DNA of 64,000 bases from Acidobacteriota bacterium (GTDB taxonomy: Bacteria; Acidobacteriota; Thermoanaerobaculia; Multivoradales; SZUA-115): positions 40,991-104,990 of the forward strand of contig JAJRVQ010000197.1 in assembly GCA_024277255.1 (NCBI GenBank), written 5' to 3'. This document shows, piece by piece, positions 144-48,771 of the stretch. The position numbers and the translations under genes were made by a program. Within the stretch, counting starts at the first letter, position 1, and each line of letters opens with the position of its first letter. The notes beneath the pieces are model-generated. The model made no database searches. It was not told the DNA's origin and worked only from the letters and a program-made list of their open reading frames with translations.

Positions 144-215
144 ATCCTCGTCTTCAGCGTTTGCCTCAACCGGAGATGGATTGGGCAACAGAACTCATGG
201 CCAAACCTCGGCCGG

Positions 216-245
216 ATTCTGGACCGATCTAGTCCTAATTGTCAA
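216..245 (-). promoter_or_regulatory. candidate sigma70-type promoter TTGACA-N18-CAGAAT
   Basis: Minus strand has TTGACA (245..240) and CAGAAT (221..216), about 75 nt upstream of the truncated ORF at 1..143 and just downstream of the selenoprotein stop. Confidence 0.3.
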
Positions 246-267
246 CCTGGCCCCCACACGCGATCCC

Positions 268-1017
268 TCACCCTTTTCGGGGAGGGGTTTCTGGCTCGAA
301 ACGGCTGAGGGCGGGAACTTCCCGGCTCTCGGCAAGGTGCAGGAGAACTCGCAAGATGGCTCTCTGTAACGCAGGATTGTCCGCCTCCCCTAAGGGAAAA
401 CCCAATCGATACGGAACGGACAGGGCGCGGGGAGGGCGCACCTTGCGGGTGACTTCTTCAAGCAGGGTCACCGAGGAGGTGACGATACCCTGCGACTCCA
501 GCTCAGCCGCGACCAGACCGACCGTCTGGTGACAAACCGGTCACACAGGAATCAGCAGGGCGAGATCGACCTGATCGGCCAGCAGTTCCTTGGCCACCGC
601 CGGTGCGGTGTGCTTGCTGAGCCGCCCCGGCGCGGTGATCGATCCCATGAGCGAGACGTGCCGCGGCGCCACCTCACCGATCTCCCCCGCCGCCGCCATT
701 TCATGCAGGCGGTCCAAGGGCATTCCCATGTTGCGGTCCGCTTCGATGCCGGAATGGTCGAAGGCCTCGGAGCGATGGAACTCCTCCAGCTGCTGAACCG
801 GCGCATCCTTGGCGATGAGCCGGTAGGAGAAGTCTCCGCCTTTGACCTCCTGATCGAAGGGCTCATCTCCCGGCGCCACCAAGCCGGCGGAAGAGACCAG
901 CGCCACTCGACACTGGGAAACCGGTTTGGAGAGAGCTGCCGCGGGCACCGGGTCGATACGACGCCAGCGATAGGCCTTGATGAAGGCACGGTATTTGAGT
1001 CCCAGTCTCCAACTCAT
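268..1017 (-). CDS. GrdB/PrdB-family (glycine/sarcosine/betaine/D-proline reductase B-like) selenoprotein, UxxC motif, in-frame TGA at 543..541
   Basis: Track ORFs 541..1017 and 268..471 are in the same frame (1017 and 471 are both divisible by 3), and the 69 nt between them is open. Read-through gives ...DLALLIPV-U-PVCHQTVGLVAAELESQGIVTSSVTLLEEV..., about 249 aa. SD GGAGAG lies 8 nt upstream of ATG 1017. A SECIS-like hairpin follows the TGA. Confidence 0.7.
512..530 (-). promoter_or_regulatory. putative bacterial SECIS hairpin
   Basis: mRNA reads UGA-CCGGUUUGUC-ACCAGAC-GGUCG-GUCUGGU. This is a 7-bp perfect stem starting 10 nt after the UGA, with a G-rich GGUCG apical loop. Confidence 0.6.
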
Positions 1018-1053
1018 CGCAGACTCTCTCCTCGGCGGTGGTCCAGCCCGCTG

Positions 1054-2946
1054 CTAGCGCAGCGGCTTGGCCTCGCCGCCTTCGGTCAGCACCCACCAGC
1101 GGTCGGTGGCCAGGGGGGCGAAACTCTGGCTCTCACCGTTGGGCCAGATCACTTCGATGGCCTCCACCGTGGTGGCCTTGCCCAGCCCGAAGTGAATCTC
1201 GGGCGCGTGGGTCGAAAAGTAGCTCAACCCGGAGAGCAGACGGCGTTCCTGGGTGCGACCGCCGGCCGTAAGGAGCACGCGGGCGCCAATGGCATCTCGA
1301 TTGCTCGTCGTGCCCACCAAACGCACCCCAAGCCAATGGCCGCCGGCAGCGCCCTCGTTGTGCAGCAACAAGCCTTGCCCGTCACCGCTCTTCTCTCCTT
1401 CGGTTCCGACCTTCTCTCCGTTGTTGGTCACCAGCAGGTCGAGACGGCCGTCGAAATCGTAGTCGGCGACGGCGAGACCGCGGTGAATTCTCTTGCCCAG
1501 CGCATGAATGCCGGAGGAGACCGACACGTCCTGGAAACGCCCCTCTCCCTGGTTCTCGAAGAGAAGGTTGTCCTGCGCGTTGTCGCCGCCCACCGAGTTG
1601 AGATGGCCGTTGGCGAGGAAGAGATCGAGGTCGCCGTCGTTGTCCAGATCGGCGAAGGCCGTCCCCCAGCCGACGCGGGGCCAGGCTAGCGAAAGCAAAG
1701 CCGGGGAACGGAAATCGCTGGTAAACAGCGCATTGCGCACCTTGCCGTCATTGCTCGACTCGTTGGAGATCAAGCGATAGAAGATGGGCGCCTCGCCGGC
1801 GAAGTTGGTAACGAAGAGGTCCATCAGACCGTCGTCGTCGTAGTCGCCGTAGGCCAGACCCATGGTGCCGTCCGTACTACTCAAGCCGCTGGGGCCCGAG
1901 TCTTCCTTGAAGGTGCCATTGCCCAGGTTGAGATAGAAGCTGTTGGGGTCGGTGTCATTGCCGACGAACAGGTCCGGCCAGCCGTCGTCGTTAAAATCGT
2001 TGAACAAGACCTGCATGCTCTTGTTGCGGTAGGCATCGCGGCCGAAAGACTGGGCGGTGACATCCTCGAAGGTTCCGTCTCCCCGGTTGCGCAGGAGGGT
2101 GTTGGGCAGCCCCGGGAAGGACATCGGGAAACGAACATTCGACGCCTGCTCTTGCCCTTTCAACAAATCGACGTAGCCGGCTAGGTAGAGATCGAGGTCA
2201 CCATCGCGATCGTAGTCACCCCAGGTGGCTCCGCCGTACCAGAAGTTCTCGTCCCGCTCGCCGAGCGGCAGAGCCTTGCTGGTGACGTTCTCGAAGTGAC
2301 CGTTGCCTTGGTTGCGATAGAGAACCGCGCTTCCGAAGTTGGTGATCAACAGATCGGTCCAACCGTCGTTGTCGTAGTCGGCCGCGGCCACCGCCATGCC
2401 TTCGCCCAGATCGCCAACTCCCACCTCCTCGGTGACGTCGGTGAAGGTACCTTCGTCGTTACGGAAGAGAGCGTTGGGCGTATCACCTTCCCCCGCGCCG
2501 TTGACGAAGTAGAGATCCCAATCCAGGTCGCCGTCATAGTCAATCCACGCCACCCCCGAGCCATTCATGCGAATCAAGTGGCGACGGGCAAAGCCCACGG
2601 GATCGGCAAACTCGGAAGGCAGGATCTTTTCGTTGGTGGCCAGCCCGGCAACCGCCCTCTGTTGCGACTGTTGCGTCGGTAGGGCGCACCACCTGGAGCG
2701 CTGGCCAAAATGGACGAAACCGATCTTCGCCTCGGACCAGCGGTCGACGAAGCGTATGCCGGCGGAGGCTTGCTCAGCGCTCGGCGCGCTCCTCTCAACC
2801 TCCCCTGCCGCCGGCGCCTCCGCGGAAGAGGTCGCGGCCAGGCCGGGAGTGGCGGCTACGAGTAGAACCGCCACGAGGGCGGCAAAAAGGTGGAGTAACT
2901 TCGAGCACGAGGAATGCTCGGCGGTGGAAGAATCTAGATGCATCAT
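1054..2946 (-). CDS. secreted FG-GAP/VCBS repeat protein with C-terminal ASPIC/UnbV domain (CRTAC1 family)
   Basis: Repeated DxDxDGxxD / FG..GAP-like motifs (DYDGDLDWDLYFVNG, DYDNDGWTDLLITNFG, DYDRDGDLDLYLAGY, DFNDDGWPDLFVGND, DYDDDGLMDLFVTNF, DLDNDGDLDLFLANG, DYDFDGRLDLLVTNN). C-terminal RDAIGARV...YFSTHAPEIHFGLG...IEVIWPNG. Start trimmed to ATGATG at 2946/2943, ahead of a signal-like LLHLFAALVAVLLVAATPGLA. Confidence 0.85.
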   Translation of the reverse strand: MMHLDSSTAEHSSCSKLLHLFAALVAVLLVAATPGLAATSSAEAPAAGEVERSAPSAEQASAGIRFVDRWSEAKIGFVHFGQRSRWCALPTQQSQQRAVAGLATNEKILPSEFADPVGFARRHLIRMNGSGVAWIDYDGDLDWDLYFVNGAGEGDTPNALFRNDEGTFTDVTEEVGVGDLGEGMAVAAADYDNDGWTDLLITNFGSAVLYRNQGNGHFENVTSKALPLGERDENFWYGGATWGDYDRDGDLDLYLAGYVDLLKGQEQASNVRFPMSFPGLPNTLLRNRGDGTFEDVTAQSFGRDAYRNKSMQVLFNDFNDDGWPDLFVGNDTDPNSFYLNLGNGTFKEDSGPSGLSSTDGTMGLAYGDYDDDGLMDLFVTNFAGEAPIFYRLISNESSNDGKVRNALFTSDFRSPALLSLAWPRVGWGTAFADLDNDGDLDLFLANGHLNSVGGDNAQDNLLFENQGEGRFQDVSVSSGIHALGKRIHRGLAVADYDFDGRLDLLVTNNGEKVGTEGEKSGDGQGLLLHNEGAAGGHWLGVRLVGTTSNRDAIGARVLLTAGGRTQERRLLSGLSYFSTHAPEIHFGLGKATTVEAIEVIWPNGESQSFAPLATDRWWVLTEGGEAKPLR

Positions 2947-3173
2947 GCGAGTGCTCCCAATCATCGGCCAATCATCGACCGTGGACGGCCCCAACCCGCC
3001 GCCGGCGGAAGGTTTCGGGACCTCGACGGCTCGAACGGCAGAGGGCTCTTGCCTGACGGTAGGAGAACCCTTCCGCCCCCTGAACACTATGACAGGAGTC
3101 ATACTCCTGGGAAGCTCTCGGCGCAACAAACCCGCGCCACCCAGCAGCGCGGGAAACTGGCCGCGAGCCGAGA

Positions 3174-3197
3174 CCGGGACGCGCCATCGCGTCCCGG
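3174..3197 (-). terminator. GC-rich hairpin downstream of giant gene
   Basis: CCGGGACGCG-CCAT-CGCGTCCCGG, a perfect 10-bp stem 24 nt after the stop at 3221. There is no clear U-tract. Confidence 0.4.
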
Positions 3198-3220
3198 TCG
3201 GCCCGCGGGCTACGGCGGAT

Positions 3221-6200
3221 CTACTTGCAGATGAAGCCGCGTACTGCGGTGCAAGACAGGTCGTTCCACGATCGGGCGACAAACTGGCCGCCAACGAACG
3301 AGGACCTGGCGAACTCCACGCAGTTCTCCGTGGTTCCACCACTCGGCTGCAAGTCTCCCCAGTTCTCGTAGCCAACCGGAGTGCCATCCATCCAGATCCA
3401 ATTCCCTTCCAACCCCGCATCGCTCAGCCCGATCCAGCTGCCCGGGATGGCCACTGCATCGTCGATCGCAGCGTCCTCGGCGGCATTGAGGATCTTGGTC
3501 AGGTCGAGCCCCTGTGCCAGGCAAGCGGAACGGGCGACCTCCCACTCCACCGCGGTGGCACAGAACTGGTAATCCTGACCGCCGGTGGTGATCGCAACGC
3601 AATTGCAGACATCGCCATCGTCGATCAGACCGTTCTGATCGTTGTCGGAGCCGTCGCAAATCTCCGTCCCGACCTCGCCGAGTTCCCCGGCCTCCACGTC
3701 GCCCGCTTCGAGCGCCATCTCCAGGTCACCGGTGACCACCAGGTCGAGGATACAGGCGTCGAGTAACTCTGGATCGACGATCCCCGCCTCGACACATTGG
3801 CTCTGCGCCCAGGCTACGAGATCGGGATCGAAGTCGGCCCAGCTGACTTCGTTGATGGGGTAGAACTCACCTTCCGGTGGAGCGAAATCCAGCGGGCCTT
3901 GGCCCACGTCATAGTCGAAGAGCGACTCGGCCGGATCGCGGATGATCCAGCCCGCCGGATCGTCGTAGGCAAGGCAGCGGGTCGTCGCGCAATCGTAGAG
4001 TTCGGCGAAGGTGGGGGGCGAAGTGAGCTGCGTGCCGTCGCGCAGTTGGAAGTCATTACTCGGATCGCCATCGAAGTTGCCGAGTACTCCTTCCAGCCTG
4101 CCTGCCAGGTCGGAATCGGGGTGGATCCGCACGCTCATCCAGCTGCCAGCCACTTTGACCCGCACATAGGAGCCCGAGTTGGGCCAGGTCACGGTGTAGG
4201 TTGAGCCTGCGCGTGTGATGACCCCACCGTTGGGCAGGGTGTAGCTCTCGCCATCGGCGAGGGGCACCGCGATGCCCGCCACCATCAGCTCATCGCCGCT
4301 GCCCGGGGGATCGACGTAGAAACCAACCCGGTCGCCGGCCACCCGCATCGCTGCCGCTGTGGTCAAGGAGACTCGGTTGTCGTTCCCGGCCTGACGGGTC
4401 TGGACCTCGAACTCGGTCACCGGGTCGCGGGTCAAGACAACTTCTCCCTTCGCCTGGAAGTCGAACTTCACACCATCGAAGTCTTCGCAGTGAGGATCTC
4501 CCCAACAATCGCCTCCGGTATCGCCGCATTCGAGGCGGAGGGTCACTTCACGGCGGTCCAGGTTGGAGAAGATCTCGATGGGGTACTCCGTGACGCCTCC
4601 GACAGTGCACTCACTACTCAAAGTAACCACCTGATCGCCGTCAATCGGAATGAAACCACCTGGGGGCGATAGCGAGTAGGGCACGTCCACCGACGGCTGG
4701 TAGCCCCACGGTAGCTCAGCGGGGGTTCGATTAGTAATCGTTACTTCGCCGATGAGGGTGACTGGCGGATCGACTACCGAGCCCTTCAGTACCACCACGT
4801 CGGGCTCGACAGAAAAATTCTCGCAACCGACCAAGACGGGATAGGTGTACACCCCACTATCCCCCTCAATCGACAGATTCAACTCAACCCAGAAAGCTGG
4901 GATCGTATCCCCCGCGGTACAATCCACAGTCAACTCGTGTGAGACAGATTCACCAGCTCCGAGGTCGACCGACCCGCTCGGTTGCACGGTCAGCCAAGAG
5001 GGTCCCGTGTCATTGGACAACGTATAGGTCTTGGGCGAGCTACTCACATTCATGGCTTGCACATCGAGCGTGATCGCCGAGCCGATCGGACCCACGAGTT
5101 CAGGTTCCAATGGTGTAATCAGTACCGGTGGTGCTTGCTTGACCTTCAACGGCTGAGCCGTAGACACAATCGGAAAGGCAGACGGGAAGGTGAGATCAAC
5201 AGCCCTAAACTCCCAATCGCCCTCATCGCCAGCAACCGGTACGAAAGTCAGAAGATCCGCCGGAGACAATTGCACGAACTCTGGATCATCGATTCTTCGG
5301 CCCCAGATCTCCAAGCCAGAACTGGGACGGAACCAGTCTTGGAACCAGCTATATTGCCGCTCGCTACGGATCAATGTCACAGGAGAGTATGGAATCTGGC
5401 CATCGATCCACACGGGATCCTCCGAGATCGTGAGTGTCGGTACAAGAGTGTTGACCCGATTGGTGGCAATATTGATTGGATCGGCCTCAAAACTAGTCGC
5501 CGGGCCGCTCTCCCAACCAAACAGCTCGATCAGAGCCTCCACGGATTCTCCAGGTTCAATGGCCTTGAAGGGGAAGAAATCCCATACCAGTGCGTCGCTG
5601 TAACTCGGACTGACGTAGTCTGGATCTGCGGGTCCCAAGAACACTCCAGATGGAAACAAGGCGTGGCTATCGACCGCGATCTGGGTTGCCGCGAAGAAAA
5701 AGTCCATGAACACCAAGAAGTCAAACTTTCCTAGTGGGTCAGCCGGAACTGGCCCAGGATAAAGACTTGCCTTGACGCCCAGTTCAATGAAGGCTCGCGC
5801 CTCGAGGTCCATGTTGGCTGCCTGCAACCCATCGATGTAAGGCGTGGCAGCCGATCCGGTTACCTGCGGATCATCGATTCCGTTGGGAAACTGGAAGCCA
5901 TCCACTTCGTTCCAATCCAAACCTCCGAACAGTTTCGTCGAGTACTCGAATTCAGGTGTGCCAAGTTCGGCGGTGGTACTTGCCTGGCCGAAATCGACCG
6001 TCACTTCCAATCCGGGTTTGAGGTAGGCATAGAAATGGAAGGTTGCCACGGCATAGAGCGGAATAGGAAAGAGGTAGACCCGCGGCAGGACTTCCTGACT
6101 ACATTCGAGTTGCGTCTGCAATCGAAATTCCGGCACAGCCAGATTCATCAGTGCGTCGAATGCGATTGCCAATAGAACCATCTTCCCCCCATCCATCTCG

Positions 6201-8401
6201 ATCTTGAAGGTGCTCGAAGGAGTGAAACTGGGATTGATTGTGAATTGGCACGGATTGTCGGCTTTGGCAGCAGTCGGCGTACCGGGAGCACCTACGGTGA
6301 CTGCTGAGCCGTCCCATGTGCCGAATCCAGCGTTCGCGTAGACGGTAGCAAGCCGTTCCAGAGCGGTGGAATCGAGATCGATATTCAGGCGTTGATAAAC
6401 CCTCCCAAAGGGTGGCACCGTGCCATGAAGGACCAAGGTTTCGGCCAAGATATCCACGCTGGCGATAAGAATAGAGCCAGCGGTACCAAAAGCGACCAAG
6501 TCTCCCACAGCTAGAGCCTCAGTAGCCGGCCCACGCTCGACAGTTAACTGAAGGTAATCGCCCGCAGCCAGAGGATTGACACTCATATCGAGCAACAACG
6601 AGGAATCAAGATCGATGAGCGCCGGATTCACCACCGCTCCCACCGCCACGGAGGCAGCGCCGGGCACGTGAGGCTCGGCACCGTCGGCCGCGACCATCAG
6701 CACGGCAAAGCAATCGTCACACAGCACGGTGGCCAGCCCGTTGGCGTCGACGCTGACCCGGTCGGGGTTACTCGATGTCCAGGCCAAGGTGGTGCCGGCG
6801 GGCACTGGCGCGGGGTTGCCCGCCGCGTCGAACCAGGTTGCCTGAAGCTGTACGACGTCTCCGACGTTGAGCAGCATGGCGGGCGACGGACCGACTTCGA
6901 GGTGGGGCATCGGGTCGACCGACGGCGGTGGTGGCGGAGGAGGATCGACGGTGCCCTGATAGGTCACCTCCAATTCGGGGTTGCCCAGCACTGCTTCGCG
7001 GCTGTTCCAGAAAGTCTGCCCGGTCCCCGCGTCCGCCAGCGCGAAAGTGAGTCTTCCGTCGGCGAGGGCGGCGGAGGCGACGGTGGCAGTCACGTCCAGC
7101 TCCACGATCTCGGTGGGCGCGGTCGCCGGCAGGCTGCCCACCACCATTCCGATCGCCGGCTGGTTGCTCCAAGTGATGAGGCTCTCGTCCCAGACCACAT
7201 TGAGCGGCTGCGTCACCGCCACCTCGGTGGCGACGTAGGTGACGGAGTTCGAGGTCAAACGCAAAACGGCGCTTTCGACCGTACCTGGATCGACCTCGAA
7301 GGCGAGGTAGCTCGCATACTGGCCGGTGCGCGCTCGCAGGACCGCGTTGGTGCCGTAATTCGTGGTCGGGCGAAGGCTGTAGACGTAGGCGTCGGCTGTC
7401 GGCGCGAAGAGTTGAGGCGTTCCCGTACCACCGCCGCCGCCACCACCACCACCACCGCCGCCGCCACCACCACCGCCGCCGCCACCACCACCGCCACCCG
7501 CCGGCGGGGTCAACACCGAGACCGGTCCGGCCCAGGCGCTTGGACCGCCAACGCCCAGGGCACGAATGCGGTAGAGGTACTCGGTGCTCTCGGTGAGGCC
7601 GGTGTCGGAATAGCTTTCGGTCCCCGGAATGAGGTTGGCGATGTTCTGGAAGATGCCGGTATTGTCGTCACTGCGTTCGAGTTCAAAGCCCGTTTCGTCA
7701 ATCGTCGAGGCGTCCCAAGTAACCTGGACCTCGCTGGAGGAGAGGGCACTGGCCGCCAGATTGGCAGGAGGATCAAGAACCGGGGGCGGATTGGTCCCGC
7801 CGCTCACCGCGAAATAGACGCCGGTGAACTTGATGCCCTGGTTGCGACCCGCCTGATAGCGGCCGTGCAACTCGACCCGATAGTAGGGGTAGCCGGAGGC
7901 GATTTCGGTCTCCACCAGGGCCGTTTGCCCCCAGATGCCGGTACCGCTGACGGTACTCGCCCAGGGTTGCCAGAGGTCGGTCCACGGCCCCAGAGGCCCG
8001 TTGCCGCCGGCGATGGTCACCGTCCCCTGTTCGAGGAAGAGCGCCACCACCCAGGTTTGAAAGTGCAAGGTTCGTAGCGCCGGATTGGCGGTGACGACGG
8101 TGCGCAGGTAGCCGTCTTCGCCCGAATGATCCTGGCCGTCGCCAGCGCCGAAGGCGAAGCGCGCGCCGGTTCCGGTCGCGCTGTCGGGCGTCGGGTTCGA
8201 CGCCTTGCGACTCGTGCCCCAGACGTTTTGTGGTTGGCTCCAGCCGTCCAGGCCAGCCGTCGTCGGGTCGGCGGACGACCGGAACCAGGGGTTGCCGATC
8301 AGGTTGTCGCCGGCCAGCGACGGCGCCACGGCGGCACCCGCGGATGCGACGACAGCAAAGATGAGAATGAGTAAGGTCACAAGGGTTCGGTGGCGAAGCA
8401 T
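3221..8401 (-). CDS. giant secreted multidomain protein: jelly-roll/CBM-like, FN3, poly-Gly, DNRLRE/CBM96-like, Big_2, unknown core, Ig-like, VWD, Cys-rich motif, C-type lectin
   Basis: ATG at 8401 with AAGGAG 8 nt upstream, then signal peptide MLRHRTLVTLLILIFAVVASAGAAVA. FN3 (PPANLAASALSSSEVQVTWD...YLYRIRALG). 24 x Gly. DNRLRE-like (PTADAYVYSLRPTTNYGTNAVLRAR...ASYLAFEV). Big_2 (VQLQATWFDAAGNP...WTSSNPDRVSVDANGLATV). VWD (CWGDPHCEDFDGVKFDFQAKGEVVL). CDGSDNDQNGLIDDGDVC. CTLD (WIGLSD..GNWIWMDG..YENW..ENCV..WNDLSC..FICK-stop). Confidence 0.9.
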   Translation of the reverse strand: MLRHRTLVTLLILIFAVVASAGAAVAPSLAGDNLIGNPWFRSSADPTTAGLDGWSQPQNVWGTSRKASNPTPDSATGTGARFAFGAGDGQDHSGEDGYLRTVVTANPALRTLHFQTWVVALFLEQGTVTIAGGNGPLGPWTDLWQPWASTVSGTGIWGQTALVETEIASGYPYYRVELHGRYQAGRNQGIKFTGVYFAVSGGTNPPPVLDPPANLAASALSSSEVQVTWDASTIDETGFELERSDDNTGIFQNIANLIPGTESYSDTGLTESTEYLYRIRALGVGGPSAWAGPVSVLTPPAGGGGGGGGGGGGGGGGGGGGGGGGTGTPQLFAPTADAYVYSLRPTTNYGTNAVLRARTGQYASYLAFEVDPGTVESAVLRLTSNSVTYVATEVAVTQPLNVVWDESLITWSNQPAIGMVVGSLPATAPTEIVELDVTATVASAALADGRLTFALADAGTGQTFWNSREAVLGNPELEVTYQGTVDPPPPPPPSVDPMPHLEVGPSPAMLLNVGDVVQLQATWFDAAGNPAPVPAGTTLAWTSSNPDRVSVDANGLATVLCDDCFAVLMVAADGAEPHVPGAASVAVGAVVNPALIDLDSSLLLDMSVNPLAAGDYLQLTVERGPATEALAVGDLVAFGTAGSILIASVDILAETLVLHGTVPPFGRVYQRLNIDLDSTALERLATVYANAGFGTWDGSAVTVGAPGTPTAAKADNPCQFTINPSFTPSSTFKIEMDGGKMVLLAIAFDALMNLAVPEFRLQTQLECSQEVLPRVYLFPIPLYAVATFHFYAYLKPGLEVTVDFGQASTTAELGTPEFEYSTKLFGGLDWNEVDGFQFPNGIDDPQVTGSAATPYIDGLQAANMDLEARAFIELGVKASLYPGPVPADPLGKFDFLVFMDFFFAATQIAVDSHALFPSGVFLGPADPDYVSPSYSDALVWDFFPFKAIEPGESVEALIELFGWESGPATSFEADPINIATNRVNTLVPTLTISEDPVWIDGQIPYSPVTLIRSERQYSWFQDWFRPSSGLEIWGRRIDDPEFVQLSPADLLTFVPVAGDEGDWEFRAVDLTFPSAFPIVSTAQPLKVKQAPPVLITPLEPELVGPIGSAITLDVQAMNVSSSPKTYTLSNDTGPSWLTVQPSGSVDLGAGESVSHELTVDCTAGDTIPAFWVELNLSIEGDSGVYTYPVLVGCENFSVEPDVVVLKGSVVDPPVTLIGEVTITNRTPAELPWGYQPSVDVPYSLSPPGGFIPIDGDQVVTLSSECTVGGVTEYPIEIFSNLDRREVTLRLECGDTGGDCWGDPHCEDFDGVKFDFQAKGEVVLTRDPVTEFEVQTRQAGNDNRVSLTTAAAMRVAGDRVGFYVDPPGSGDELMVAGIAVPLADGESYTLPNGGVITRAGSTYTVTWPNSGSYVRVKVAGSWMSVRIHPDSDLAGRLEGVLGNFDGDPSNDFQLRDGTQLTSPPTFAELYDCATTRCLAYDDPAGWIIRDPAESLFDYDVGQGPLDFAPPEGEFYPINEVSWADFDPDLVAWAQSQCVEAGIVDPELLDACILDLVVTGDLEMALEAGDVEAGELGEVGTEICDGSDNDQNGLIDDGDVCNCVAITTGGQDYQFCATAVEWEVARSACLAQGLDLTKILNAAEDAAIDDAVAIPGSWIGLSDAGLEGNWIWMDGTPVGYENWGDLQPSGGTTENCVEFARSSFVGGQFVARSWNDLSCTAVRGFICK
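7427..7498 (-). repeat. (GGY)24 homocodon tract encoding 24 consecutive glycines
   Basis: Plus strand reads acc acc gcc gcc gcc acc x5 gcc x3 acc x3 gcc x3 acc x3 gcc acc, with internal 9/18-nt periodicity. It sits in frame in the giant gene between the FN3 and DNRLRE-like regions. Confidence 0.95.
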
Positions 8402-8584
8402 GGCGTTGTTCTCCTTCAGTCTCGCGGCACGGTCCCCCACGCCGAGATCGGCGCGCCGCCCGCTCAACCGACCCGGAGTAGGCCGCGGCGATTTTTTGCG
8501 CACGGGATGAAAAAAACCTCTCTTCGCCATCCACACCGATCGACGGAAGGCAGGCGGGGGTGTGAGAAGATTCCTCGGGGGGAG

Positions 8585-9205
8585 ATGAGTCGCAGGGTGC
8601 ATGCGCCACCGATGAACAACTTCATTCACCGTCGGCTCGGCCGACTCCTGGCGGGTGACCGCGCTGCGGCGGCCTGGCTCTACGACGAGTTCGCGCCCGG
8701 CCTCTATCACCGGCTGACGCTGCGCTACCGCCACGTGGCCGGCGTCGAGCCCGTCGACTTGCTGCACGACGCCTTCGTCTTTTTCCTACGGCCGAACAAC
8801 CGCGCCCTGCGCGAGTTCCTGCATCGGACCCCGCCCGCCGAGTGTTCATCCGCCGCTCTCGAGAAGCGTCTGTGGGACCTTGCCTGCGGCCTGGCGACAA
8901 ACCGAAGACGCTCGGCCTGGAGCCGCCGAGCGGTGCCCATGGCCGAAATTCGAGAGACCACCGAGGAGAGCAACGCCGAGCGCGGCACGATCGCCCGCGA
9001 CTCGCTCAAGAAACTCGACCGCTGCATCGAGGCGGAGACGCAGGAAGGCTACCTCTACTACCAGATGCGCTACGTGGACGGACTCAAACCGCGCCAAATC
9101 GCCGCTGCCACCGGCCAACCCGTGGGCGAGGTCTACCGTCTGAGAAGCGCGCTCGACCGAGCCTTGCGACGATGCGCCGAGCGTCTCGGGCTGTCCACGC
9201 CATGA
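8585..9205 (+). CDS. ECF-type RNA polymerase sigma-70 family factor
   Basis: Region-2-like DLLHDAFVFF and region-4 HTH (LYYQMRYVDGLKPRQIAAATGQPVGEVYRLRSALDRALRRCAERL). The start is ambiguous between ATG 8585 (GGGGGGAG abuts it) and ATG 8612. The stop overlaps the next gene (ATGA at 9202). Confidence 0.75.
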   Translation: MSRRVHAPPMNNFIHRRLGRLLAGDRAAAAWLYDEFAPGLYHRLTLRYRHVAGVEPVDLLHDAFVFFLRPNNRALREFLHRTPPAECSSAALEKRLWDLACGLATNRRRSAWSRRAVPMAEIRETTEESNAERGTIARDSLKKLDRCIEAETQEGYLYYQMRYVDGLKPRQIAAATGQPVGEVYRLRSALDRALRRCAERLGLSTP

Positions 9206-11982
9206 GGTGGTCGATCGGCGTATTGGCGCTCGGCGTCGTCCTCGCTGGCACCGGGGGCTGCCGGAGCGAGAGCCGGCGTGTGCCCTTCCCCATCGTCGTG
9301 CGCGGCCATCAGGATCTTGCGCTGGAGGCCGGAGACGGAGAGGTCACCACGGCGATTCCCCTCTTCGTAGGCTCCGGCGCAACCGCCGGCTTGTGCCTCG
9401 AAGTCCCGCCGACGGTCAATACCAGCTCATGGCTCGCCAGCCTCGACCTGGCGGGCAAACCTCTGGGGCCGGCGGCACCGCCAGCGGCGCGGATCGCGAC
9501 CACGGTCTGCTTCGAGGCCACCCTGCCCGAGGAGCCGCCGCCGGCCGAGACCATGGAGCTGTGCGGCTACCTCAAAGAGGGTGCCAGCGGGCAGAGGCGC
9601 CGCCTGCCCTGCCGGCGCGTGCGCCTGGTCGACCGCTTGGCCTGGGACGATCTGCGCCGCCGGCTCGGCATTGTACTCAGCGAGCAGGCGGCCTCCTCGA
9701 TGGAAGAACTGGCGGTGGCGCTCGATCGGCTGGCCGGCGAGGCGCGCACCGCCTCCCTGCCTCAGCTGGCGGTGCAGATCGACCTGATCACGGTGCACTT
9801 TCTCTCCGTAACCGGCCATCTGCGCGCCGCCGCCGACCGACTCGACGCCCTTCCGGCCTGGCTGGATCAGGGCCCAGCGAGCGATAGTGCCGCCCAGGCG
9901 GCCTACCTGCGAGCGCAGATCGCCCTGCTGGACGAGCGCCGCGCCGACGCCTGGCGCGCCCTCGACACCGCCGACCGGCTCTACCTGCGAACCGCCAACC
10001 CGCAGCGCTTCACCGTCGCCATGCAGCGCGCGGCACTACTCTCGGACGCAGGAGCCGGCCACGAAGCGGTCACCCACCTACGGCGACGACTGCGCCAGTG
10101 TGACGACGCGCAGTGCGATTGGGCACTGCTGGCGGCGGCCCGATTGCAGATGGCGCGGCTCGTCTTGTACGACCCGTTTCGCACCCACGACGAGGTGGAG
10201 GAAGCGCGCCGAAAACTGGCCGATCTTTCCTCGACGACACCTCCAACACGCCGCCTGCCGGCACTGATCGTCGACGCCGCCCTGCAACTGGAACTGGGGG
10301 AAGATCCGGCGGCGACCTTGGCCGCGGCGCGGGCCATGCTGCCGGCCTCCGCCGCAGCGCCGGACCACGACAGCAACCAGGGCTGGATCGTCTGGCTGGA
10401 GGCCAAGGCGGCGCTGGCGCGCGGCGACGGCGATGCGGCGCTCACCGCCTGCCGGCCGCTGGCCGCGAGTGGCGATCGCTCGATGGCTCCCTGGGCTTGG
10501 AGTTGCATCGCCCGCGCTCAGCACGCACGGGGCGAGCTGCGCGCCGCCGACCTGGCTTTCGGCAAGGCGCTCGCCCACCATGAACACACTTCCAGCGCCA
10601 GTCTCGGCCTGTCCCTGGCCTCAGGACTCGGCCCGCAAGCCGACGATGTCGCTCGGGCGGCGCGGGTGGCGGTCGAGCTCGACCAGCCCGAGCGCGCTTG
10701 GCGCTTGCTGGTACGACTCGACCAGCGCTCGTCCCACGAGGGGCGGCGGCGGCGCTGCCGGGAATCGGCGCGCTCACCCGCGGACATGGCGCGCTGGAAG
10801 GAGACCGACAACCAGATCCAGACGGCGCTCGCCGAGCTCAGCGATCTCGCCATGCCCGCTTCGTTGGCGCGCGAGGCCGACACCGAGCCGGTGCGCGACG
10901 CCCTCCAGGAGCGGCTGCAAGAGCTCTGGCGCACCTGGCCCGGCTGCGATGATTCACCGCAACCGATCGCCGACGGCGCCGACTTGCGCGCCTTCGCGCT
11001 CGATGACGAGGTCATCCTGCTCGCGCGACACGACGGCCGGATCACCACGGTCCGCCGCACGCCGCTCGATCGAAGGGCGCTCACCCGGCTGACCCAGCAG
11101 CTTTCGCTCGCTCTCGCCAACCATGATCTCGACGACGAAGAGTGGCGCCGGCGATTGGAGCCGATCGCCGCGGCACTGCTGCCGCCGGAGCTCAACGCTG
11201 CCAGCCCGACCATTGTTTACGCGCTCCACGGTGCACTCCAGGCCATCCCGCTAGCCGCCCTCCCCTTGCCCGCCGGTGCCGGCAAAGCGTGGTTCGGCGA
11301 TCTGGCGACCGTCGCCGTGCAGCCCGCCGGTGCGCAGAGTTCAGAGGCAGACCAGGGCGCCGAGGCCGCACCGCCCCTGTTCGTCGTCGACCCGCTCGGC
11401 GACCTGCCCCACGCCGGCCGTTCCATCGCGGCATACCGCCGCGCCTTCCCCGCCGCTCGCATCCTGCAGCGCGACGAGGCCACCCGCCGTGCCCTGCAGG
11501 ATCACCTCGACCAGGCCACCTGGCTGCATCTCGACGCCCACGCGACCTACGAGGCGGCCTTTCCCGAGCTTTCCAGCCTGCTCCTCGCCGACGGACCGCT
11601 CCGTCTGATCGAACTGGCGACGATGGCTGTTCCGCGACGCTTCGCCAACCTCAGCGGCTGCCGGACCGGCACCTGGCACCCCACCGCCGACAGCGGTCGC
11701 TACGGCCTCGGCGGCCTTATGGCTCGTCTCGGAGTGCCCTGGACGGTGGCGACCCGGGCCTCCCTTCCCGACCGGCTGGCCCGCGACTACAACACCGCCT
11801 TCTACGCGGCGATCGCCGGCGAGGCCACGGCGCCCGCGGCCCATCGCCTCGCCCTCGCCCGGTTGCGGCCGCGGTACCCGGCGGCGGCTTGGGGATCGCT
11901 GCTCTTGCTCTACGCACCACCGAGGGGCGAGCGGGGCGACGACGAGATTGAGCGACGAAAAACGCCCTTTGCCAACTCCTGA
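9202..11982 (+). CDS. TPR-like/CHAT domain protein (caspase-like Cys protease fold) with N-terminal signal/lipoprotein-like peptide
   Basis: Track ORF trimmed to ATG 9202 (MRWSIGVLALGVVLAGTGGC). C-terminal CHAT signature: LFVVDPLGDLP...ATWLHLDAHA (His codon 11539..11541) and FANLSGCRTG (Cys codon 11659..11661). The helical Ala/Leu/Arg-rich middle region is TPR-like. Confidence 0.8.
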   Translation: MRWSIGVLALGVVLAGTGGCRSESRRVPFPIVVRGHQDLALEAGDGEVTTAIPLFVGSGATAGLCLEVPPTVNTSSWLASLDLAGKPLGPAAPPAARIATTVCFEATLPEEPPPAETMELCGYLKEGASGQRRRLPCRRVRLVDRLAWDDLRRRLGIVLSEQAASSMEELAVALDRLAGEARTASLPQLAVQIDLITVHFLSVTGHLRAAADRLDALPAWLDQGPASDSAAQAAYLRAQIALLDERRADAWRALDTADRLYLRTANPQRFTVAMQRAALLSDAGAGHEAVTHLRRRLRQCDDAQCDWALLAAARLQMARLVLYDPFRTHDEVEEARRKLADLSSTTPPTRRLPALIVDAALQLELGEDPAATLAAARAMLPASAAAPDHDSNQGWIVWLEAKAALARGDGDAALTACRPLAASGDRSMAPWAWSCIARAQHARGELRAADLAFGKALAHHEHTSSASLGLSLASGLGPQADDVARAARVAVELDQPERAWRLLVRLDQRSSHEGRRRRCRESARSPADMARWKETDNQIQTALAELSDLAMPASLAREADTEPVRDALQERLQELWRTWPGCDDSPQPIADGADLRAFALDDEVILLARHDGRITTVRRTPLDRRALTRLTQQLSLALANHDLDDEEWRRRLEPIAAALLPPELNAASPTIVYALHGALQAIPLAALPLPAGAGKAWFGDLATVAVQPAGAQSSEADQGAEAAPPLFVVDPLGDLPHAGRSIAAYRRAFPAARILQRDEATRRALQDHLDQATWLHLDAHATYEAAFPELSSLLLADGPLRLIELATMAVPRRFANLSGCRTGTWHPTADSGRYGLGGLMARLGVPWTVATRASLPDRLARDYNTAFYAAIAGEATAPAAHRLALARLRPRYPAAAWGSLLLLYAPPRGERGDDEIERRKTPFANS

Positions 11983-14533: not shown

Positions 14534-15877
14534 TCAATAGGCCGCGGCTCGTGCCCGGGTGCGCCCCGTGCGCCGAAGTTCCTCGGCCATCGACTCGATT
14601 TCCCGCAGGTCCTGCACCATTTCATTCCAGCCATACCACAGGGCATAGTCGGGGTTGGCGTGGAAGGTGCCCTGGAAGGCTCGCATGCGGTGCTTGAGAT
14701 GCATGGTGAAGAGGCGGTTCTCGATCGGGGTCGGCGAATCGTGGAAGGTCAGTAGATCGGGGAAGGCGTAGGCGTAGCTTTCCGGCTTCTCCAAGACGCC
14801 GTCGCGATAGAGCGCGGCGATGACCCGGATCGCCTTTGCCAGCAGACGATCGATCTCCTGGATCATCTGATCACCTTTCTCCAGCTCCGCGCGTGCGAAG
14901 TTGTCAGAGTGACATTCGCTGCAAACTCCGAGCATCTTCGTGCGCTCACGGTCGAAGTCGTGCTTGGTGAGGCGGGCAAGGTCCGCCTCCTGAACCACAT
15001 CTAGCCTTGCCGTCGGGTTGCCCTCGGGGTCGAGCACGCCGAGAGCCTGAAGGATCGTCACTCGGTCGGCCCACCACTCTTCGTCTTCGCCCGGATAGGG
15101 CGCTAACCCATCGGTACGCACGGCGAGGAAGCCCCAGGCGGTTCTCACCTCGTGGTCGCCTTCGACCATGTGGCAGGTCTGACAGGTCGGAGCAGAGGCG
15201 TTTTCCGGAAGGATCCCCTTCTGCTTCAGGTCGTAACGCGCCCCATGCTTGGAGGTCGAGTACATCTCCCATTGCGGATGATCGAACCCCATGTGGCAGC
15301 TCATGCAGGCCTGAGGCTGGCTGGCCTCCGCCACCGAAAAGCCATGCCGCGTATGGCAGGCGTCGCAGGAAGCGAAACCGAAGCCCGAGCCGTTTTTCTT
15401 GAGTTCGGCGATCTCCTCGTCGCTCTTCAAGCCGAGCTTGTGACAGCCTCCGCAGCCCTTCATGCCGTCGATCAACGCCGACGGCTTCCAGTGCGTGGTC
15501 GGCATCGCCTTCATGACCGCCCAGGCCTTGGCGTGCTTGCCTCTCGTGAACTGAGCCAAGCGCTCCTCGTGGCACGAGCCACACCGGTCGGCGGTCACCG
15601 TCACCAGATTGGCGACGTCGAATTCATTGACGTGGTCACCCAGGTGGCAACCGGTACAGCCAACGTCGTTGGCTCGATGGGCGCTGGTGTCCCAGTCTTC
15701 TACGATCCCGGGAGTGATCCCCCTATGACAGTCGATGCACTGCCGGCTGGCAGCGACGGATTCGGACCTTGCCTCGCCGTCACCCGTCTGCGTGCAAGCG
15801 CTCAGGGGCAGAACAATAATCGCGAACAAGAGAAAACATGGATGGCAAAAGCGCTGGGAGCACTCGAAAAAACTCAC
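14534..15877 (-). CDS. octaheme c-type cytochrome, hydroxylamine oxidoreductase (HAO) family, lipoprotein
   Basis: Eight CxxCH motifs (CIDCH, CTGCH, CGSCH, CGGCH, CDACH, CMSCH, CQTCH, CSECH). HAO-like block CDACHTRHGFSVAEASQPQACMSCHMGFDHPQWEMYSTSKHG. GTG start with AAGGAG 7 nt upstream. Lipobox LPLSAC. Confidence 0.85.
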   Translation of the reverse strand: MSFFECSQRFCHPCFLLFAIIVLPLSACTQTGDGEARSESVAASRQCIDCHRGITPGIVEDWDTSAHRANDVGCTGCHLGDHVNEFDVANLVTVTADRCGSCHEERLAQFTRGKHAKAWAVMKAMPTTHWKPSALIDGMKGCGGCHKLGLKSDEEIAELKKNGSGFGFASCDACHTRHGFSVAEASQPQACMSCHMGFDHPQWEMYSTSKHGARYDLKQKGILPENASAPTCQTCHMVEGDHEVRTAWGFLAVRTDGLAPYPGEDEEWWADRVTILQALGVLDPEGNPTARLDVVQEADLARLTKHDFDRERTKMLGVCSECHSDNFARAELEKGDQMIQEIDRLLAKAIRVIAALYRDGVLEKPESYAYAFPDLLTFHDSPTPIENRLFTMHLKHRMRAFQGTFHANPDYALWYGWNEMVQDLREIESMAEELRRTGRTRARAAAY

Positions 15878-45391: not shown

Positions 45392-47572
45392 ATGAGCCTT
45401 TGCGGCGGCGGGGGAACTGAAACCGTGGCTACTGCTGCTTTTCACCTTGAAGTCGGCCAGGACCGCCTGGCTACTCTCACCTTCGACCTGCCGGGCAAAA
45501 AGGTCAACATCTTCAACCAAGCGGTGCTCGAAGAACTGGCCGCTCTGATTCCACAATTGGCCCAGCGGCGCGACATCGGCTGCCTCATCCTGTTGTCGGG
45601 TAAACCCGGTTGTTTCATCGCCGGTGCCGACGTCGAGGCCATCGCCGGAGTAACCGACCCCAACGAGGCTCTGGAGGGGATCCGCGGCGGACAGGAGCTG
45701 TTCTCAGCTTGGCAAGAACTCCCCTTCCCGACCGTCGCCGCCGTCGACGGCCTCTGCCTTGGCGGCGGGGTCGAGATCGCCCTGGCCTCCAGCTTCCGCC
45801 TGGTCAGCGACGGCTCCGCCAGCCGCTTCGGCCTGCCCGAGGTCAAGCTCGGCATCGTTCCGGCCTGGGGCGGCTGCACCCGCCTGCCGCGGCTCGTCGG
45901 CCTTCCCGGCGCGCTCGACATGCTGCTGACCGGGAAAAACGTCTACCCCAGGAAGGCGTTGAAGCTCGGCCTGGTCGACGGTCTGATTCCCCAGTCGGCC
46001 TTTCTGCACCAGGTCCGCGAGTTCGCCGGCGCCCACGTCGATTCCAAGAAGCGGCCCGCCGATCGCGCGGACTTCAAAGAGCTGCTGCTGGAGAAGAACC
46101 CGCTCGGCCGTAAGCTGGTCTTCGACCAGGCGCGCAAGAAGACGCTCGAGATGAGCGGCGGCCACTACCCGGCTCCGCTGCGCATCATCGAAGTGGTCCG
46201 CGTCGGTATCGACGACGGCATGAAGGCCGGATTCGAGGCCGAACAACGCGCCGCCTCCGAGCTGGTCGTCGGCGCCGTCAGCAAGAATCTCATTCACGTC
46301 TTCCAGCTGATGGAAGGGGTCAAGAAGACGGAGAATCGGCCGGCGGGGACTCCACGCTCGGTGAGCCGCGCCGCGGTACTCGGCGCCGGCGTGATGGGCG
46401 GCGGCATCGCGCAGCTCATCGCCGACAAGATGGGAATTCCGGTTCGGGTCAAGGACATCGGCGCCGAAGCGCTGGCCAGCGGCATGAGCCACGCCTCCGG
46501 CCTCTTCGCCAAGCGGGTCAAGAAGCGCCGCCTGCGGCCCGACCAGGCCGCCCGCAAGATGGCGCTGATTCAGCCCACTCTGACCTACGATGGATTCGAA
46601 CGCTGCGACCTGCTGATCGAAGCCATCATCGAGAAATTGGGCATCAAGCAGAAGGTTTTCGCCGAGGTCGAGAGCAAGATGGCGGAGGGCGCCGTGCTGG
46701 CCTCCAACACGTCGTCGCTTTCGATCGACGCCATCGGGGCCGAAACCTCGAATCGGGGCCAGGTCGTCGGCATGCACTTCTTCAACCCGGCCGACAAGAT
46801 GCCGCTGGTCGAGGTGATCGCCGGCGAGAAGTCCGACCCCGACGCCGTGCGCACGATCTACGACCTGGCGCTCAAGCTCGGCAAGACGCCGGTCCTCGTC
46901 CGCGACGCTCCCGGTTTCCTGGTCAATCGGCTGCTGATGTTCTACAGCTCCGAGGCTCTCTGGCTGCTCGATGAAGGGTACGCGATCGAAGATGTCGATC
47001 GCGCCATGAAGGACTGGGGGATGCCGCTGGGACCACTGGCGCTGACCGACGATGTCGGCATCGATGTCGCGGTCAAGGTGGCCCACATCCTCAGCGAGGC
47101 CTTCGGCGATCGGCTGCCCACACCCGAGTGGCTCGACAAGGCCAGTGAACCAGGGCGGTTGGGGAGCAAGACCGGCTCAGGCTTCTACCGCTACGACGGT
47201 CGCAAGCGGCTCGATCCCGACCGTCAGATCTACCGCATCCTGGGCTTGACGCCGCGCGTTCAAGACCCCGATCCGGCACAGATCGCCGAGCGGCTGGTGC
47301 TGCCGATGGTCAACGAAGCGGCGCGCTGCCTCAGCGAGGGCGTGGTGCGGGATCCGGGTAGCCTCGACCTCGCCATGATCATGGGGACCGGCTTCCCGCC
47401 CTTCCGCGGCGGCCTCTGCCGCTGGGCCGACGCACAGGGGCTGAGCCCGATCGTCGACCTGCTCGAAGAGTTCGCGGAATCGATCAGCCCGCGCTTCATG
47501 CCCAGCGACAGCCTGCGGGCAGCGGCCCAGAGCGGCGGTTTCTACCGCCACAGGTGGTCAGGAGGAAAGTAG
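45392..47572 (+). CDS. fatty-acid oxidation multifunctional protein (enoyl-CoA hydratase / 3-hydroxyacyl-CoA dehydrogenase), FadJ/FadB-like
   Basis: Crotonase part (FIAGADV, GGGVEIALA, GLPEVKLGIVPAWGG). HAD part (VLGAGVMGGGIA Rossmann, NTSSLSI, GMHFFNP). Start is ATG 45392 or GTG 45425. Confidence 0.88.
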   Translation: MSLCGGGGTETVATAAFHLEVGQDRLATLTFDLPGKKVNIFNQAVLEELAALIPQLAQRRDIGCLILLSGKPGCFIAGADVEAIAGVTDPNEALEGIRGGQELFSAWQELPFPTVAAVDGLCLGGGVEIALASSFRLVSDGSASRFGLPEVKLGIVPAWGGCTRLPRLVGLPGALDMLLTGKNVYPRKALKLGLVDGLIPQSAFLHQVREFAGAHVDSKKRPADRADFKELLLEKNPLGRKLVFDQARKKTLEMSGGHYPAPLRIIEVVRVGIDDGMKAGFEAEQRAASELVVGAVSKNLIHVFQLMEGVKKTENRPAGTPRSVSRAAVLGAGVMGGGIAQLIADKMGIPVRVKDIGAEALASGMSHASGLFAKRVKKRRLRPDQAARKMALIQPTLTYDGFERCDLLIEAIIEKLGIKQKVFAEVESKMAEGAVLASNTSSLSIDAIGAETSNRGQVVGMHFFNPADKMPLVEVIAGEKSDPDAVRTIYDLALKLGKTPVLVRDAPGFLVNRLLMFYSSEALWLLDEGYAIEDVDRAMKDWGMPLGPLALTDDVGIDVAVKVAHILSEAFGDRLPTPEWLDKASEPGRLGSKTGSGFYRYDGRKRLDPDRQIYRILGLTPRVQDPDPAQIAERLVLPMVNEAARCLSEGVVRDPGSLDLAMIMGTGFPPFRGGLCRWADAQGLSPIVDLLEEFAESISPRFMPSDSLRAAAQSGGFYRHRWSGGK

Positions 47573-47640
47573 GCGGCACGGCTCTTGCTACTCAAGACGC
47601 CTGCAACCTCGCAGCGCCCGCAAACCAAGGAGATCGACGA

Positions 47641-48771
47641 ATGAACAGCCAACTCCGACTGCCTACCCGCCTGAGCACAGCAGCGTTCCTATGCTTCCTG
47701 CCGCTCGTGACCGCCCTGCCCTCCGCGGCGCAGGACCCATCCGCCCAGCCTGAGGCGCAAGAGCAGGCAGTTCCGTTCACCGGCGAGGTGGACGTCACCG
47801 AGGTTCTCCTCGACGTCCTGGTTACCGACAAGCAGGGCAACGTCGTCGTCGGACTCGCGGCGGACGACTTCGTGGTCCAGGAAGACGGCGAGCCGGTGGT
47901 CCTTTCGGACCTCGTCTTCTACAGCAACCGCAAGTTGCTCGATCCCGCCGCCACCGGGGGCAGGATCGACACCACCACCCAACGCCGTTACTTCATCCTC
48001 TTTTTCCAGGAGCAGCAACGCAACGACTCTACCGGCGCACAGCTGCTGAAGCGGCAAATGCAGGCGGCTCGTGACGCACGGCAGTGGGTGAAAAAGCAGA
48101 CCTTGCTCGACGACTGGATCGCCGTGGTCAGCTATGACAACCGCCTGGTCATGCACAGCGATTTCACCAATGACAAAGCCGCCTTGACGCGAGCGATCGA
48201 CTCGGCGGTCACCGGCAAAGACCCCGGCACACAATGGCCTTCGCGAGCTCCGAAAACCGGTGAGATCTCGCTCCTCTACTACCTGCCGAAGGGCAACGCA
48301 CTGCGCGACGAGTCCGAGACCATCTACGACGCTCTGCAGACCCTGGCCCGCTCCGCCGGCAACACCGTCGGGCGCAAGAACCTGGTGATGTTCGCCACCG
48401 GCTTCGGCGAGATCAACGAACTCGGCCTCTACCGGCCCGACAAGCGCTACTTCCTACCGACCGTGCAGGCGCTCAACGACAACAACGTGGCCGCCTACAC
48501 CGTCGAGATGGCCCCCGCCAGCATCGAATACCAACTGGCCAACGGCCTCAACCAGCTGGCGGACGAGACCGGCGGGCGTTATCAGTTCAACTTCACCCGC
48601 TTCTTGACCCCGCTCAAGGAGATCTCCAGCGAGAACAGCGGCTACTACTTGTTGAGCTATCGCTCCAGCCACCCGCGAGGCGAGAGCGGCTTTCAGCGCG
48701 TCAAGGTTGACGCCCGCAACCCGGAGTTCCAAGTCCGCGCCCGCGAAGGCTACAGCTACGGCAACCCATAA
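47641..48771 (+). CDS. VWFA-related domain protein (TIGR03436-like, Acidobacterial type)
   Basis: AGGAG SD and a signal peptide. VDVTEVLLDVLVTDKQGNVVVGLAADDFVVQEDGEPVVL is typical of that family's N-domain, followed by a VWA-like fold. Confidence 0.75.
   Translation: MNSQLRLPTRLSTAAFLCFLPLVTALPSAAQDPSAQPEAQEQAVPFTGEVDVTEVLLDVLVTDKQGNVVVGLAADDFVVQEDGEPVVLSDLVFYSNRKLLDPAATGGRIDTTTQRRYFILFFQEQQRNDSTGAQLLKRQMQAARDARQWVKKQTLLDDWIAVVSYDNRLVMHSDFTNDKAALTRAIDSAVTGKDPGTQWPSRAPKTGEISLLYYLPKGNALRDESETIYDALQTLARSAGNTVGRKNLVMFATGFGEINELGLYRPDKRYFLPTVQALNDNNVAAYTVEMAPASIEYQLANGLNQLADETGGRYQFNFTRFLTPLKEISSENSGYYLLSYRSSHPRGESGFQRVKVDARNPEFQVRAREGYSYGNP

Follow-up and report, generated by a model that had tools for sequence, protein, structure and literature searches.

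The stretch analysed here is a 64-kb window (64,000 nucleotides) of contig JAJRVQ010000197.1 from an Acidobacteriota bacterium, and all positions given without a locus name refer to it. Close to its left edge, on the minus strand, lies a gene whose frame is interrupted by an in-frame TGA, with a short hairpin directly downstream of this codon (Table 1). Translation of 268-1017 gives 249 codons in which the TGA at 543..541 is the sole internal stop; its context is LLIPV-stop-PVCHQTVGLV, which yields a U159-x-x-C162 motif if the codon is read as selenocysteine (Sec). The list of open reading frames (ORFs) splits the gene in one and the same frame into 541..1017 (158 aa) and 268..471 (67 aa, from an internal GTG start). 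An initial annotation had proposed that the two pieces form a probable selenoprotein gene related to GrdB and PrdB, with a UxxC motif, and that automated annotation would truncate it. Translation bears this out: the pieces share a frame that no stop other than the TGA interrupts, the read-through product has 249 aa with Sec at residue 159, and the database copy of the product (P0001) is indeed a fragment of 158 residues. We consider it very probable that 1017..268 is one gene coding for a genuine Sec-containing, stand-alone PrdB-like protein of 249 residues that belongs to the GrdB/PrdB superfamily. The locus combines a single gene, a Sec/Cys pair, a conserved TGA, coding constraint downstream of it, a covarying hairpin and membership of the superfamily with the absence of PrdA or Grd partners nearby; from these features we infer that Sec is actually inserted in the organism of the window.

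Table 1. Features of the PrdB-like gene and of its upstream neighbour (positions in the window)
Feature	Position	Strand	Remarks
PrdB-like gene, complete, very probably a selenoprotein gene; 249 residues	268..1017	-	ATG 1017..1015; Sec codon 543..541; stop TGA 270..268
UGA codon, most probably read as selenocysteine (U159)	541..543	-	Aligned with Cys in homologs; TGA conserved
Cys162 codon, putative resolving cysteine of U-x-x-C	532..534	-	Present in all 73 Sec forms and all 32 full-length forms
SECIS-like hairpin	512..530	-	7-bp stem ACCAGAC/GUCUGGU (530..524, 518..512), loop GGUCG (523..519); minimum free energy (MFE) fold
Possible extended lower stem, from the base after the UGA	498..540	-	MFE fold of the window; tentative
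Putative Shine-Dalgarno-like AGGAG, 10 nt 5' of the ATG	1028..1032	-	Read directly from the sequence
FG-GAP / ASPIC-UnbV protein, upstream neighbour	1057..3420	-	FG-GAP_3 160 bits, UnbV_ASPIC 65 bits; context, not partner

Among 5.8 billion proteins searched, 2865 relatives were found, and two kinds prevail among the best matches. Full-length homologs of 245-250 residues, 50-58% identical to the window protein, display the motif VPV-C-PxC-(H/N)Q with a cysteine exactly at the TGA position (30 of the 32 full-length homologs, with Arg in one and Gly in one). Homologs of ~160 residues, ~70% identical, cover the first 62% of the query and all stop at ...PV. The aligned position carries either a Cys, in proteins of ~245-250 aa, or a TGA. 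A genome scan with one genome per GTDB species gave 80 loci, in which tblastn matches extend over residues ~5-243, cross the TGA and end at ~235-248. The codon could be located by motif search in 73 loci; it is TGA in 72 of them and TGC in the remaining one. Gene calling in the loci of Sec-form relatives produces the same split as in the window, a GRDB ORF of 160-183 aa followed by a fragment of 61-80 aa. The loci are found in metagenome-assembled genomes (MAGs) labelled Acidobacteriota (Thermoanaerobaculia, Sulfomarinibacteraceae, Holophagae), Myxococcota, Desulfobacterota, Planctomycetota/Brocadia, Verrucomicrobiales and others; the nearest genome matches are 62-68% identical and are labelled Acidobacteriota (Thermoanaerobaculia/Sulfomarinibacteraceae, Holophagae) or unclassified 'bacterium'.

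The DNA that follows the TGA has the properties of coding sequence. It is free of stops for 55 codons in 76 of 76 sequences, the next stop lying at a median of 85 codons, and the mean pairwise differences at codon positions 1, 2 and 3 are 0.30, 0.24 and 0.54, a pattern matching that of the 50 codons upstream of the TGA (0.26, 0.20 and 0.56). Automated annotation treats the window gene and many of its relatives as if the TGA were a true stop or a disabling mutation, with a product of 158 residues and with 268..540 as non-coding DNA or a separate small ORF, and the window shows no Sec machinery. We find this view hardly credible, because the same TGA is kept in 72 of the 73 orthologs from several phyla, the frame runs on without stops and with a coding substitution pattern, what follows the TGA can be aligned to the C-terminal part of Cys homologs and of PrdB and GrdB models, and a selected hairpin follows the codon directly. 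Neither a pseudogene nor a sequencing error nor a genuine stop can account for the conserved TGA and the coding pattern downstream of it, and we return to a Sec codon within one continuous gene.

The hairpin ACCAGAC-GGUCG-GUCUGGU had been pointed out in the initial annotation as a candidate selenocysteine insertion sequence (SECIS), and it is present in the MFE fold at the predicted place. It starts 10 nt past the UGA, spanning 11-29 nt downstream, and its 5-nt loop begins 17 nt after the UGA. The criteria of bSECISearch place a G near the start of the apical loop at ~16-37 nt from the UGA, and the loop is within this range. In an alignment of 73 Sec-type sequences, ungapped from the UGA onward, the upper 7-bp stem is paired in 92% of cells. 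The lower stem is weakly conserved, 70% of cells being paired in the 4-bp lower helix that was tested. Sliding the 3' arm by 1-3 columns reduces pairing from 84% (both helices) to 25-39%. Compensatory changes are found at two stem pairs, C-G being replaced by U-A in 16 sequences and A-U by G-C in 13; the change of a Thr codon (ACN) to an Ala codon (GCN) is accompanied by a change of the partner base to C.

Coding constraint is a confounder in this comparison since the stem overlaps the codons for the conserved residues H-Q-T-V-G-L-V. Three observations separate selection on a SECIS from this constraint. In synonymous recoding based on the codon usage that each gene shows outside this segment, 47 of the 73 hairpins proved more stable than 95% of their recodings. 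The Gly codon of the stem, whose third base pairs with the A of the Thr codon, is GGT in 45 of 55 cases, as compared with 138 of the 987 Gly codons (14%) in the remainder of these genes. The G-U of the apical loop is contributed by the GUN codon of Val166, a residue found in 70 of 73 Sec forms versus 3 of 32 Cys forms. Judged by these sequence comparisons, the hairpin appears to behave as a SECIS that is conserved, with covariation, throughout the family.

Several results weigh against Sec decoding at this locus. Taken as a single sequence, the window hairpin is unremarkable: the z-score of the 91-nt fold is -1.5, and 9% of the synonymous recodings that preserve the peptide do as well in pairing and 19% in fold stability. 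It is not significant against these recodings because the conserved peptide HQTVGLV dictates much of the stem, so that the evidence beyond chance comes from the family comparison and not from the window sequence. No Rfam family or bacterial SECIS model matched the hairpin, whether the whole window was scanned at the gathering threshold or 200..1100 by E-value; only the tRNA-Pro and chance matches came back. Three Cys-form genes and one Arg-form gene whose DNA was read keep 3-6 of the 7 stem pairs; with so few Cys-form genes examined as DNA, the contrast between Sec and Cys forms at this level rests on a small sample. The machinery of Sec insertion was also searched for. Genes selA, selB and selD are absent from the window according to Pfam scans of 38 ORFs that cover it. 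ARAGORN found no tRNA-Sec in the window, whose sole tRNA is the tRNA-Pro, nor in 84 loci, and none of selA, selB, selD or tRNA-Sec lies within 10 kb of any homolog. Sec decoding in the genome of the window is, for lack of this machinery in the 64 kb or near the homologs, probable rather than certain.

Some members of the family depart from the general pattern. Locus L081 (6001-6735; protein P0004) codes for an otherwise full-length homolog in which the Sec position is occupied by Arg (CGA, a single base different from TGA), in the altered motif PIPV-R-RTCHE, and its gene keeps 6 of the 7 SECIS stem pairs. Homolog P0016 has a Gly at this position. The Arg and Gly forms could result from recent Sec loss, represent inactive copies or come from assembly or base-call errors. 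In one MAG the gene is present on two contigs (L047 and L048; CAVWAW010000028 and CAVWAW010000027) with an identical 57-nt segment comprising the UGA and the SECIS, which could be a duplication or assembly redundancy. Other frames of the window with high G+C content at third codon positions and interrupted by TGA were also inspected; the 11 candidates were antisense frames or adjacent genes and none was convincing. The Sec trait is thus not shown by a second selenoprotein among these frames.

Profile searches assign the read-through protein to the GrdB/PrdB superfamily. It passes the gathering cutoff of Pfam family GRDB (PF07355; 45.7 bits versus 22) over residues 8-155. The best NCBIfam match is PrdB (TIGR04483), with 124.2 bits for a cutoff of 300 and residues 27-228 aligned to profile positions 21-217 of 238. 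It is followed by GrdF (NF040794; 52.8 bits versus 800, residues 12-223 on 204-418 of 435), GrdH (NF040795; 45.2 versus 775, residues 20-211 on 209-402 of 435), GrdB (TIGR01917; 43.3 versus 602, residues 8-226 on 196-417 of 431) and the selenoprotein B subfamily (TIGR01918; 41.4 versus 65.45, residues 12-221 on 200-412 of 431). The Grd models match in their C-terminal halves only, the N-terminal half of GrdB being absent from the window protein. These scores define a member of the superfamily with the short PrdB-like architecture, yet below the curated cutoff of every characterised member. The proposed kinship with short PrdB/GrdB-like proteins is upheld by the near-full-length alignment to the PrdB model and by the GRDB score, and the part encoded by 268..540 aligns with the C-terminal regions of the PrdB, GrdF, GrdH and GrdB models, up to residues 211-228.

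The GRDB match (553-994 in the window) stops four residues short of the Sec, at profile position 344 of 347, and the NCBIfam models reach residues 211-228. The Pfam model therefore seems to end at the Sec, and its seed sequences may have been truncated at the UGA; in that case Pfam-based annotation would be blind to the C-terminal third of these proteins.

Structural comparison gave no functional lead. A sequence search of the PDB found nothing at E <= 1. The AlphaFold2 model of the Cys homolog P0006, which is 55% identical to the window protein, has a predicted local distance difference test score (pLDDT) of 94 and a predicted template modelling score (pTM) of 0.93. In this model the C-P-x-C motif is predicted to lie in a short turn between a β-strand (154-158) and an α-helix (164-177). 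Such a strand-turn-helix placement resembles that of many redox-active CxxC motifs. Foldseek of the model against the PDB retrieved no hit at E <= 0.001, the best TM-score being 0.34, and the fold does not guide functional assignment because it has no significant structural neighbour.

Homology to PrdB, the clostridial D-proline reductase subunit, extends to the length (249 residues for 238 profile positions), to near-full-length alignment and to the in-frame UGA. The U-x-x-C motif is listed for the PrdB family (PMC13188914). The gene could accordingly code for a genuine PrdB subunit whose PrdA and accessory Prd partners are encoded elsewhere in the genome: TIGR04483 is the best NCBIfam match, covered nearly in full by a protein of the same size with UxxC at the same position, and the Joint Genome Institute (JGI) labels many relatives 'D-proline reductase (dithiol) PrdB'. 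This assignment is nonetheless very unlikely, as the score lies far below the equivalog cutoff and no PrdA/GrdE-type protein (Gly_reductase) is found in the window, in the neighbour clusters of 74 loci or in the flanks, annotated with Pfam, of seven loci of relatives. The MAGs are labelled Acidobacteriota, Myxococcota, Planctomycetota and others, unlike the amino-acid-fermenting Clostridia, and to our knowledge these are not groups known for Stickland fermentation. The low PrdB score, the lack of prd genes near the window gene or the examined homologs and the non-clostridial MAGs all indicate that the substrate is probably not D-proline. A stand-alone PrdB-like selenoprotein is the assignment that we retain.

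Resemblance to GrdB, GrdF and GrdH of the glycine, sarcosine and betaine reductases consists in the GRDB score, in an alignment that runs through and past the Sec and in the U-x-x-C motif. These proteins have ~430 residues, and the window protein lacks their N-terminal ~190-200 residues, the matches beginning at profile positions 196-209. GrdB carries the motif UxxCxxC (PMC13188914); the window protein has no third Cys (U-P-V-C-H-Q-T). Another difference is that grdA, grdC, grdD and grdE are missing from the window and from the examined homolog loci.

The genomic neighbourhood offers no partner either. Pfam scans of the ORFs of the window found no prdA/grdE-type gene (Gly_reductase) and no grdA, grdC or grdD, in agreement with the initial statement that grdA, grdC and prdA partners are not adjacent; no prdA or grd partner appears in the recurrent neighbour clusters of the 74 loci or in the Pfam-annotated flanks of relatives. 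The gene for the FG-GAP/UnbV protein, whose stop codon TAG (1056..1054) sits 36 nt before the ATG of the selenoprotein, is not a conserved neighbour in homolog loci. On the other side, the window edge is reached 267 nt past the stop codon of the selenoprotein. All-against-all clustering of ORFs within 6.5 kb at the 74 loci revealed no neighbour shared across clades; clusters 3, 4, 11, 12 and others were discarded because they consist of Arg/Pro-rich ORFs in alternative frames, as is typical of high-GC DNA. Pfam annotation of the flanks showed unrelated genes next to three relatives of the Sec form, two of the Cys form and the one with Arg. The status of orphan is justified by these results.

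The description as an orphan UxxC member holds for the absence of partners nearby. It needs qualification regarding novelty, as the family is already known and selenoprotein surveys have included it from 2005 onwards. The UxxC motif occurs in PrdB and GrdB, two classical selenoproteins (PMC13188914, PMC9312934). In the Sargasso Sea metagenome 'proline reductase PrdB' was the third most abundant selenoprotein family, with 42 genes (Zhang, Fomenko & Gladyshev 2005; PMC1088965), and in the Global Ocean Sampling (GOS) data PrdB was among the most abundant, with 235 Sec and 110 Cys forms (Zhang & Gladyshev 2008; PMC2398784). These sequences share with the window gene the pfam07355 domain, UxxC, a mixture of Sec and Cys forms and an origin in environmental bacteria. 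The two papers filed them as proline reductase, and the missing PrdA and the gene context are not addressed there. This 'PrdB' group is most likely the home of the window gene, a placement that we base on its description.

By analogy with the established bacterial mechanism, and considering the evidence from the TGA and the hairpin, the UGA at 543..541 is most probably decoded as Sec by the complex of SelB, guanosine triphosphate (GTP) and Sec-tRNA(Sec). The hairpin at 530..512, with its G-U in the apical loop, would recruit SelB as a bacterial SECIS. In the protein, the structural model of the Cys homolog would place Sec159 after a β-strand, in the short turn preceding an α-helix and three residues ahead of Cys162. 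The subsequent chemistry can be conceived from PrdB and GrdB, whose mechanism is described in the literature summarised in PMC13188914. The selenolate of Sec159 would attack the substrate, Cys162 would resolve the adduct to a selenenylsulfide (Se-S bond), and a dithiol or a flavoprotein disulfide reductase would reduce this bond again. The redox cycle, the electron donor and the use of substrate suggested for the window protein are all drawn from this analogy.

One branch of the family has a more informative context. A Myxococcota-dominated set of MAGs contains ~14 loci in which a tight arsenosugar-type cluster of genes on one strand ends with the Sec-containing ortholog (L036, 3366 to ~10700; L014, L019, L022, L024, L025, L027, L031, L033, L040, L042 and L046; partly L021 and L069). 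The order is ArsM (in some loci), the ArsS radical S-adenosylmethionine (SAM) enzyme, MTAP, a DedA-like membrane protein, a flavin adenine dinucleotide (FAD) disulfide oxidoreductase, fused TIGR04282/TIGR04283 arsenosugar glycosyltransferases and the PrdB-like protein. Assignments in this cluster exceed the respective cutoffs for ArsS (TIGR04167; 445 bits versus 300), for the FAD-containing oxidoreductase (NF004991; 722 versus 620) and for the glycosyltransferases (TIGR04283, 216 versus 182; TIGR04282, 156 versus 134). At least one branch of the family may, to judge from this gene order, take part in organoarsenical metabolism. The ArsS genes of the linked operons are Cys forms and add no evidence of Sec use. 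No paper mentioning a link between PrdB-like proteins and an arsenosugar operon was found in a literature search.

The family as a whole might then act in organoarsenical, perhaps wider metalloid, metabolism, the UxxC selenoprotein and the FAD-dependent disulfide reductase supplying the reduction step in arsenosugar biosynthesis; this function is compatible with a stand-alone selenoprotein. Two further loci accord with it. At L085 (11560-12740) arsR and arsM (NF008823; 286 bits versus 263) lie ~4 kb downstream on the same strand of a close Sec-form relative, 71% identical to the window gene over the N-terminal part. At the Cys-form locus L084, genes for a radical SAM protein and an ArsM-like methyltransferase are found upstream and one for an FAD oxidoreductase 2 kb downstream. 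We regard the proposal as unlikely at present, since nothing comparable accompanies the window gene anywhere in the 64 kb, the genes next to most Acidobacteriota relatives are variable and unrelated, and the linked loci are closely related, so that shared ancestry could explain their synteny. A narrower version, in which orphan PrdB-like proteins are separate stand-alone selenol/thiol reductases and one branch is the unrecognised last enzyme of an arsenosugar operon, reducing an organoarsenical intermediate with the adjacent flavoprotein, is likewise a speculation to which we attach little probability. If the metalloid role were true, the window gene would belong, as a dispersed member, to a family of selenoenzymes that handle metalloids. 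The link to the arsenosugar operon in the Myxococcota-dominated clade provides a concrete hypothesis.

The run of genes at L084 (2500-10198) comprises a radical SAM protein (best matches Tes and TrsS, both below cutoff), a DVU_1556/ArsM-like methyltransferase, a transporter of the PHO4 family and the PrdB-like protein. It continues with an AhpD/YciW-like protein, a major facilitator superfamily (MFS) transporter and the FAD-containing disulfide oxidoreductase. Several families of this run have selenoprotein forms according to their NCBIfam names.

The full-length selenoprotein restored here corrects the gene model at this locus. Many relatives are stored in public databases as fragments of ~160 residues; the NCBI name for relatives is 'glycine/sarcosine/betaine reductase selenoprotein B family protein', and some are labelled D-proline reductase PrdB, which neither scores nor context support. 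The window gene is one more member of the family and nothing qualitatively new. The family is widespread in MAGs, has Sec in most of the examined members and has no matching solved structure, making it a reasonable target for functional work.

A few other observations concern the surroundings of the gene. Just downstream of the selenoprotein stop, at 216-245 on the minus strand, a sigma-70-like promoter match (TTGACA-18 nt-CAGAAT, 10 of 12 positions) presumably belongs to sequence outside the window, past its start; no intrinsic terminator was recognised 3' of the selenoprotein gene. At a distance, a FadB-like gene (enoyl-CoA hydratase / 3-hydroxyacyl-CoA dehydrogenase; 45392-47569) is followed, where a thiolase gene is expected, by an ORF at 47554-48768 (plus strand) that has no Pfam match at 1e-5; the frame or the start chosen for it may be wrong. 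Two ORFs within 15 kb of the selenoprotein gene, with no link to it seen, code for a CHAT-domain protein of 1046 aa (8842-11979, plus strand) and for a multi-haem c-type cytochrome (14537-15877, minus strand; Multi-haem_cyto, 103 bits). An ORF of 1848 aa at 3224-8767 on the minus strand combines fn3, CBM96 and VWD domains with C-terminal C-type lectin domains and contains a run of ~25 glycines.

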